From NCBI GenBank assembly GCA_951406725.2, contig OX597840.1, positions 62,001 to 126,000 of the forward strand: DNA of 64,000 nucleotides, written 5' to 3'. The notes under the pieces are model-generated. The model made no database searches. It saw only the letters and a program-made list of their open reading frames with translations, and was not told where the DNA came from. Origin of the DNA: Octopus vulgaris. Taxonomy: Eukaryota. Each line of letters opens with the position of its first letter. The stretch's first letter is position 1. The translations under genes and the position numbers were made by a program. Positions 36,017 through 36,523 of the stretch are shown here, one piece after another.

Positions 36017-36523
36017 CAAAAGAAAAATTCTAATGCCAAATATGCCGAAAAAAAGAGAAAAATTGTCAATAACCATTATAATTTATGCGTCTCGAAACAA
36101 ACCGATAGAAATTTCTAAAAAATCCGTTATTACCGTATTGGTCCCAATTTCGGGGTTAATTCATAAGAATTTTCCCCTCTCAGCGATAAATACGTGAGAT
36201 ATAAGTGAATACTTATTCATACCCATGGAAAAAGCAACTACTAAGTCCTGAGCAGACCTAAGTACCCCAAATATATCCAGAATAGAAAATCTTCGGCACA
36301 TCTCGAGACACGTGTGATTCGAGCTAGAAACTTTCACAGAGTGAGAGAATCCGGAAGTGAACACTATTAAATTTATAACTAATGTAGGATAACATTTTTT
36401 TCGGTAAAAAATTTTTATCAATGGCCAGCATATCAAAAAATACCGTTAAAGTTTAAATTTATAAATAATTTACAAAATAAGGGCAAAAGAAAAATTCTAA
36501 TGCCAAATATGCCGAAAAAAAGA
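36017..36523 (-). mobile_element. 467-bp unit with 40-bp terminal redundancy carrying an HHR (retrozyme/pLTR candidate)
   Basis: caaaagaaaaattctaatgccaaatatgccgaaaaaaaga at 36017-36056 and 36484-36523. Confidence 0.7.
36131..36188 (-). ncRNA. Type I hammerhead motif with a 6-nt core (N7 missing)
   Basis: tatcg-CTGAGA-GGGG aa AATTC(ttat)GAATT aa CCCC-GAAA-TTGG(ga)CCAA-TA-cggta. Confidence 0.68.

Follow-up and report, generated by a model that had tools for sequence, protein, structure and literature searches.

The repeat at positions 36017–36527 of the window (the whole 64,000-nucleotide stretch of Octopus vulgaris DNA analyzed here) is likely a decayed, 5'-truncated copy of a non-LTR retrozyme that was inserted by the enzymes of a Penelope-like element (PLE), probably of Neptune type, from a likely circular RNA of one unit. 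The family to which it belongs is likely a new non-LTR retrozyme family moved by PLE enzymes. The features of the window copy are as follows:

36017–36527, minus strand: element copy, about 1.1 units of a 467-nt repeat; the RNA sense is the minus strand
36017–36056: first copy of the 40-bp redundancy, unit positions 1–40
36484–36523: second copy of the 40-bp redundancy, where the next unit begins before the 5' truncation ends it
36130–36189, minus strand: predicted type I hammerhead; its core (36183–36178) is without position 7 in the window copy only
36190–36275, minus strand: long, conserved hairpin that immediately precedes the hammerhead on its 5' side, in a rod-like predicted whole-unit fold
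36374 (unit position 358), minus strand: fixed 3'-end site A, a putative internal start of reverse transcription; internal in the window copy
36460 (unit position 444), minus strand: fixed 3'-end site B, a second putative start of reverse transcription
35958–36013: (AAT)n tail of an unrelated neighboring repeat (35401–35960), which occupies the place of the 3' end of the window copy
36530–36594: flank of (TA)n and then (TG)n; TA runs are the usual target of the family

As an earlier note on this DNA had stated, the 40-bp direct repeat is exact, with a spacing of 467; past it, one mismatch is followed by four more matching nucleotides. The mismatching base, a G at 36057, differs from the C found in the majority of the family. 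The 5' end of the window copy is a truncation at about 36527, 40–44 nt into the next round. The 3' end is absent at 36017, where the copy is short by 24 nt with respect to site B or by 110 nt with respect to site A, and where it abuts the (AAT)n tail of the unrelated repeat. Because of the 5' truncation and the missing 3' end, the overlap length of 40 bp is an accident. The note was also borne out with regard to the microsatellites on both flanks, with (AAT)n left of the element and (TA)n/(TG)n right of it, and with regard to the lack of a recognizable open reading frame: the longest ATG-started frame has 54 aa and the longest stop-to-stop frame 94 aa. The element is surrounded by three copies of the other, (AAT)n-tailed repeat (34952–35115, 35401–35960 and 37053–37466), which are 89–93% alike and one of which is inverted.

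The single hammerhead that had been claimed inside the repeat, with a CUGAGA core and an AUA site, was found on the minus strand and is of type I. Stem I (36189–36184 pairing with 36135–36130) encloses the core at 36183–36178, a long stem II (36177–36152), the sequence GAAA, stem III (36148–36137) and the AUA site, and the cut is predicted between 36136 and 36135. No hammerhead match to Rfam was obtained in the 12 kb around the site (E of 1), in the window and seven loci at the gathering score, or in 171-base stretches of the window and of an intact copy at E of 10; thus, the hammerhead call rests on core, stems and covariation. Single-sequence folding of the 71-nt motif recovered stem II and not the full hammerhead. 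In an alignment of 24 copies across subfamilies, 91.9% of the cells were paired, and 8 of 22 pairs were changed on both sides, with all three stems represented. This covariation score was reached by 0 of 500 shuffles, and slid controls were only 25–44% paired; related sequences can beat such shuffles, and 36 of 500 shuffles attained the count of changed pairs taken by itself. Among 32 closer copies, 95.2% of the cells were paired and six pairs were changed on both sides. The covariation indicates that the family hammerhead is under selection, its cleavage being a prediction.

The earlier note had pointed to a six-base core. Among 41 aligned motifs, 33 carried CUGAAGA, three CUGAGGA and one CUGACGA, three were damaged in other ways, and position 7 was missing from the window copy alone. 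CUGANGA was present in 120 of 136 motif matches, which include a few false or truncated ones. Core position 7 varied across copies, the remaining core being almost invariant. Searched with its context, the six-base core had a single exact match in the genome as compared to 619 for the seven-base core. The six-base core is a private deletion, i.e., decay of the window copy, and a special status of this core is not supported. The stems of the window copy are intact, as a natural functional variant without position 7 would require, but with one genomic match against 619 and one aligned copy in 41, such a variant is extremely improbable. The window copy, decayed and with a single damaged hammerhead, is likely dead; it would release no monomer since its sole hammerhead is damaged in the core and its 3' end is lost.

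Stem III is nearly palindromic, with a centre of 1–2 nt, and folding of the hammerhead as a dimer is possible by extension from PMC4209133 (in part). Two words upstream of the hammerhead, CACGTG (36309–36314) and CCGGAAGTG (36351–36359), are well conserved across subfamilies. We take them to be possible internal promoter elements. Elsewhere in the window, a second, unrelated minimal hammerhead-like motif lies at 60595–60640 on the plus strand (CUGAUGA, 5-bp stem II, GAAA, short palindromic stem III and GUC site) and is probably a remnant of a PLE pLTR; a weak minimal hammerhead-like motif at 1060–1100 (plus strand) is probably decayed. A 184-bp unit is present in three tandem copies, 94% alike, at 47063–47621, which we presume to be SINE-derived.

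The window copy belongs to a large family. When the 2.8-Gb genome was searched with 507 bases, 3,496 candidates were obtained, and the best 40 were scored, all with near-full matches at 92–96% besides the window itself. One 17-mer of the unit had 3,725 exact genomic matches, and its reversed control had none. By hand count, the first 100 matches listed formed 75 clusters, so about 2,800 loci carry the 17-mer. Of 109 copies of the core region, 96 formed one well-sampled group, and the others were spread over five smaller, diverged groups, with 72–88% identity between groups; the window copy was 97.7–97.9% identical to its nearest relatives in the group of 96. The length of 44 natural units was 444–508 nt, with a GC content of 0.32–0.34. 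A comparison of the unit with PLE coding sequence yielded no residual match (best E of 5.6), and the unit holds no frame with reverse transcriptase (RT) and GIY-YIG. Five units were predicted to be 61–66% paired as circles, with fold z values of −1.5 to −5.3 (−4.7 for the window unit, 40 shuffles); the pairs of the rod fold could equally form in linear tandem RNA.

The expectation that multimers exist was confirmed, with copies of up to about 2.7 units, and the family structure agrees with the reading of the window copy as more than one unit of a non-coding repeat that bears a hammerhead. Loci with two hammerheads are a small minority (29 exact two-site matches, 8 at the longer threshold), and one locus, L184, has three. 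Long retrozyme-type arrays were not found among the top-scored candidates and exact motif matches, where the longest copies measured 1,158–1,309 nt, about 2.7 units. A very homogeneous copy of 2.5 units with two intact hammerheads, L189:1202–2334, is a good candidate for a source locus.

The ends of the insertions were analyzed in a sample chosen by position, namely 60 of the first 62 clusters of the 17-mer on contig C1, with L184 and L021 (both long) left out, and mapped with a profile of the 44 natural units. Of 103 segments, 37 ended at site A and 44 at site B, together 81; 8 of the remaining 22 ended no more than 9 positions from the A window. Loci chosen by similarity concurred, with 110 of 136 segments ending at A or B. 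Both sites sit in a related 20-nt motif, which forms a direct repeat, and the 86 nt between them (36374–36459) are an optional tail that may be understood as the PLE-type tail of this family. A TA run adjoined 71 of the 81 A/B ends, TA runs being common in the genome; with flanks made of TA runs, target-site duplications, which exceed 4 bp in those non-LTR retrozymes that have them, are unreadable. The 5' ends were scattered, and 4 of 103 lay within 6 nt of the hammerhead cut as compared to 2.9 expected if uniform. Thus, the copies are not freely permuted, as the earlier note had supposed: the 3' ends lie at two fixed sites, and only the 5' ends vary. The segments had a median length of 202 nt and exceeded one unit in 15 of 81 cases, the range in the family being less than 0.2 to about 2.7 units. 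An accumulation of 5' ends at unit positions 68–70 proved to be an alignment break in diverged subfamilies and was gone with profile mapping. Unit position 253 was rejected as a transcription start, since it was represented by three segments only, beside TA microhomology, and longer copies run past it.

Head-to-head insertions with two arms were present at 36 of the 60 loci, 23 of them with one A and one B end, and none with two A or two B ends. In 52 two-arm loci, rare variants were common to both arms in 6 of 4,890 sites, and between loci in 2 of 118,782, which suggests that the arms of a locus likely stem from one RNA. PLE insertions are known to target microsatellites, to form partial tandems and to carry an inverted 5' copy and, at one of their ends, a tail (PMC8557442 and PMC3846280, each in part). 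Since fixed 3' ends, 5' truncation, inverted arms, a one-end tail and TA targets are marks of PLEs, the insertions of this family are very probably of PLE type.

Candidate helpers reside in the same genome. A search for GIY-YIG gave 148 matches among the best 150 scored of 6,136 candidates, 16 of them in open frames of 781 codons. The 781-codon protein combines an RT (28.9 bits, just below the Pfam cut-off), a CxxxxCxxC linker of Neptune type and GIY-YIG. The 3' region of this Neptune-type PLE contains a minimal hammerhead with a U3-A8 core, a variant noted in PMC4209133 (in part), and 13 of 13 of its end motifs (11 loci) were followed by TA repeats. The element with the 781-codon frame is young and about 4.8 kb long (L076:389–5172, L077, L078 and L079); a second open frame of 333–479 codons precedes the first and has no convincing Pfam match, and the 3' region of the element holds repeated CCAAT- and CRE-like words. 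A second PLE family (L081:4300–4500, L084 and L087) combines a CUGAAGA hammerhead of the minimal type with a tail of its own, since its 3' end lies at either of two places in front of TA runs, a few tens of bases from each other.

The unit was found as a pLTR at none of 36 GIY-YIG loci examined, a small part of the 6,136 candidates, and six Neptune-type 3' ends matched the unit no better than shuffles (46 to 447 of 500 scored as high). In L077, L095, L204 and L258, pieces of PLEs lie close to the unit, but TA runs or other DNA lie between, and these pieces were taken for independent insertions and dismissed as a helper link. As no sequence link to the unit was found in this sample, the helper is deduced from target and architecture only, and on that basis it is quite probably a Neptune-type PLE.

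With regard to the template, 44 of the 81 A/B segments crossed the hammerhead cut site, and deletions fell in the cut-site bin in 2 of 187 cases (insertions not counted). The crossing and the few deletions argue against a cut linear monomer as the template in most cases. In vitro, a PLE protein used uncleaved RNA and did not need the hammerhead (PMC11167929, in part), and uncleaved RNA accounts for the seamless crossing of the cut site as well. Assembled contigs were compared for 7 of 24 listed runs, five presumed to be RNA (X1, X3, X6, X10 and X12) and two unlabelled (X15 and X16). They span the unit wholly or for the most part, and some of them join the unit end to the unit start; genomic tandems have the same joint, and the contigs, which are uninformative on ends and strand as well, are therefore silent on circles.

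The sharing of variants between successive rounds of one insertion is more telling. A new mutation in a linear tandem parent would appear in one round, and a mutation in an excised monomer that is read round would appear in all rounds, so sharing favors a single unit. In 76 tandem segments, derived sites were common to the rounds at 2.94 per 100 within a locus as compared to 0.48 between loci. In 67 young tandem segments, with CpG, homopolymer and end positions left out, 10 private variants occurred in both rounds as compared to 0.14 expected, and 92 occurred in one round. It is therefore probable that one unit was read more than once, and we lean towards a covalent RNA circle as the template. 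Gene conversion or homogeneous parents could likewise account for private variants common to rounds. The main rival keeps the PLE passenger and replaces the circle with a linear template, i.e., uncleaved read-through RNA from the rare loci of at least two units, combined with template jumps and conversion. It draws on the use of unprocessed RNA by a PLE in vitro (PMC11167929, in part), on the rarity of copies over two units and on the subfamily alleles, about a quarter of which (62 of 264) disagree between rounds of one locus. On the other hand, the excess of both-round private variants is not what a linear parent would leave, and inheritance was not specific to a round, since variants common to two loci formed 93 same-round and 87 opposite-round pairs. 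Locus L189 had one discordant site in 347 over 2.5 units, with 29 derived sites common to its rounds. In addition, hammerhead stem III has 4–5 bp and is kept by compensatory changes, whereas the hammerheads of autonomous elements are minimal. The linear template is thus unlikely, although of the alternatives it deserves the most attention. The original proposal of a genomic copy of a circular RNA of about 467 nt accordingly stands in one part, as variant sharing favors a unit read repeatedly, while the circle itself still competes with the uncleaved linear tandem. Among the chimeric-looking loci are L027 and L029 (L027:1388–2138 and L029:1361–2119), where rounds within one insertion are of different subfamily types, and these mixed rounds suggest template switching between RNAs.

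The copies could instead derive from an autonomous PLE outside the sample, either as its stubs (pLTR plus tail) or by internal deletion. Every insertion mark is a PLE mark, the unit was sought at only the 36 GIY-YIG loci, and frog retrozymes resemble pLTRs (preprint 10.64898/2026.07.22.740005). However, what lies upstream of the unit is the same unit again, for up to 2.7 rounds; 89 non-unit 5' flanks had no common extension, and of their three pair matches one is due to a simple repeat, one to a duplication of local extent and one to a different repeat; and the unit retains no coding match, as given above. Such an origin of the copies is very unlikely, and the descent of the unit from an old pLTR is possible and compatible with a PLE-inserted retrozyme. 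The 40-bp repeat, finally, is exact and at both ends of the window copy, as would be expected of a target-site duplication or of fixed terminal repeats flanking a solo insert. Both are refuted, in accordance with the earlier note, and have a negligible probability: the 40 bp are ordinary internal family sequence, and the overlap in other copies varies from none to more than 800 nt.

Compared with known systems, the family resembles animal non-LTR retrozymes most closely (Cervera and de la Pena 2020, PMC7229834, in part; Li, Clavereau and Pollet 2026, preprint 10.64898/2026.07.22.740005). Common to both are a non-coding unit of a few hundred bases with a GC content below 50%, a type I hammerhead that has a genuine stem III, copies arranged head to tail, a self-paired predicted circle and life beside PLEs with minimal hammerheads. 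The length of 467 nt is just above the range of 150–450 nt (PMC7229834, in part) and within that of 51–972 nt (preprint 10.64898/2026.07.22.740005). In contrast to animal retrozymes, the insertions here are mostly dispersed and of less than one unit or of 1–2 units, long arrays were not found, the pLTRs of the sampled PLEs show no sequence match, and the family is known from sequence alone. In word searches, the main texts of both sources showed no mention of inverted arms, tails or fixed priming sites. Judged by sequence, the family fits animal non-LTR retrozymes on every testable feature except long arrays and pLTR likeness.

The EN+ PLEs of the Neptune clade (PMC8557442, PMC3846280 and PMC4209133, each in part) share with the family partial tandems, 5' truncation, an inverted 5' arm, a one-end tail, (TA)n targets and a hammerhead near the 3' end; they differ in having an RT-endonuclease frame, a tail of usually 30–40 nt instead of 86 nt and a minimal hammerhead. 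In vitro, a PLE protein extends both DNA strands, and two internal RNA starts delimit the tail, as described for the Anolis Poseidon element PAc (Frangieh et al. 2024; PMC11167929, in part). PAc resembles the family in its two tail-defining internal starts, the extension of both strands, AT-rich targets and the lack of ends at the hammerhead cut site. Unlike the family, PAc is autonomous. Its two starts adjoin each other in an AC-rich stem loop and show no homology to the target, whereas the starts found here are separated by 86 nt, fall within a repeated AU-rich motif and share TA microhomology of a few bases with the target. Plant LTR retrozymes (PMC7229834, in part; preprint 10.64898/2026.07.22.740005) are likewise non-autonomous, with a hammerhead and a proposed circular RNA intermediate. 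They carry a type III hammerhead in true LTRs, a primer-binding site and 4-bp duplications and have a Gypsy helper, whereas the family here has a type I hammerhead and a variable overlap; no tested plant feature fits. No report of such a family was found in the literature on octopus hammerhead ribozymes or, among the best 10 of 4,486 matches, in that on octopus, cephalopod or mollusc retrozymes, and the available portions of an octopus repeat annotation (PMC13282606) mention neither hammerhead nor retrozyme nor ribozyme.

The sequence of events may have been as follows. A locus with two intact hammerheads, of which there are few, would be transcribed, and the monomer would be cut out and then ligated. 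A PLE protein would bind the retrozyme RNA and nick a (TA)n run. Reverse transcription would start inside the RNA at A or B, often at one site per DNA strand; the ends of the copies lie at these sites, and the chemistry is proposed. One start per strand would yield head-to-head arms with the tail on one arm. The cDNA would run across the hammerhead cut site into the next round, as the copies do, and stop at a variable point. The window copy, with its damaged core and lost 3' end, would yield no further monomer. A more specific proposal, plausible without being quite favored, is that the retrozyme is unrelated in sequence to its helper and that its thousands of insertions preserve the full process: a Neptune protein starts at two fixed internal sites on one circle, one per strand of a TA target, and rolls past the ligated hammerhead site.

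The window copy itself represents ordinary decay. For animal retrozymes, PLE helpers were proposed from co-occurrence and pLTR likeness (PMC7229834, in part; preprint 10.64898/2026.07.22.740005), and both mobilisation by PLEs and the circle as template are so far proposals. The family described here puts PLE integration marks on a retrozyme-type unit and adds a countable signal of repeated unit reading. As it shares one genome with young, full-frame Neptune-type elements, both points can be tested with the published in vitro PLE assay. If the proposal of one circle read by a Neptune protein is true, the family would provide direct genomic evidence that animal retrozyme circles template PLE reverse transcription, with a young helper at hand.
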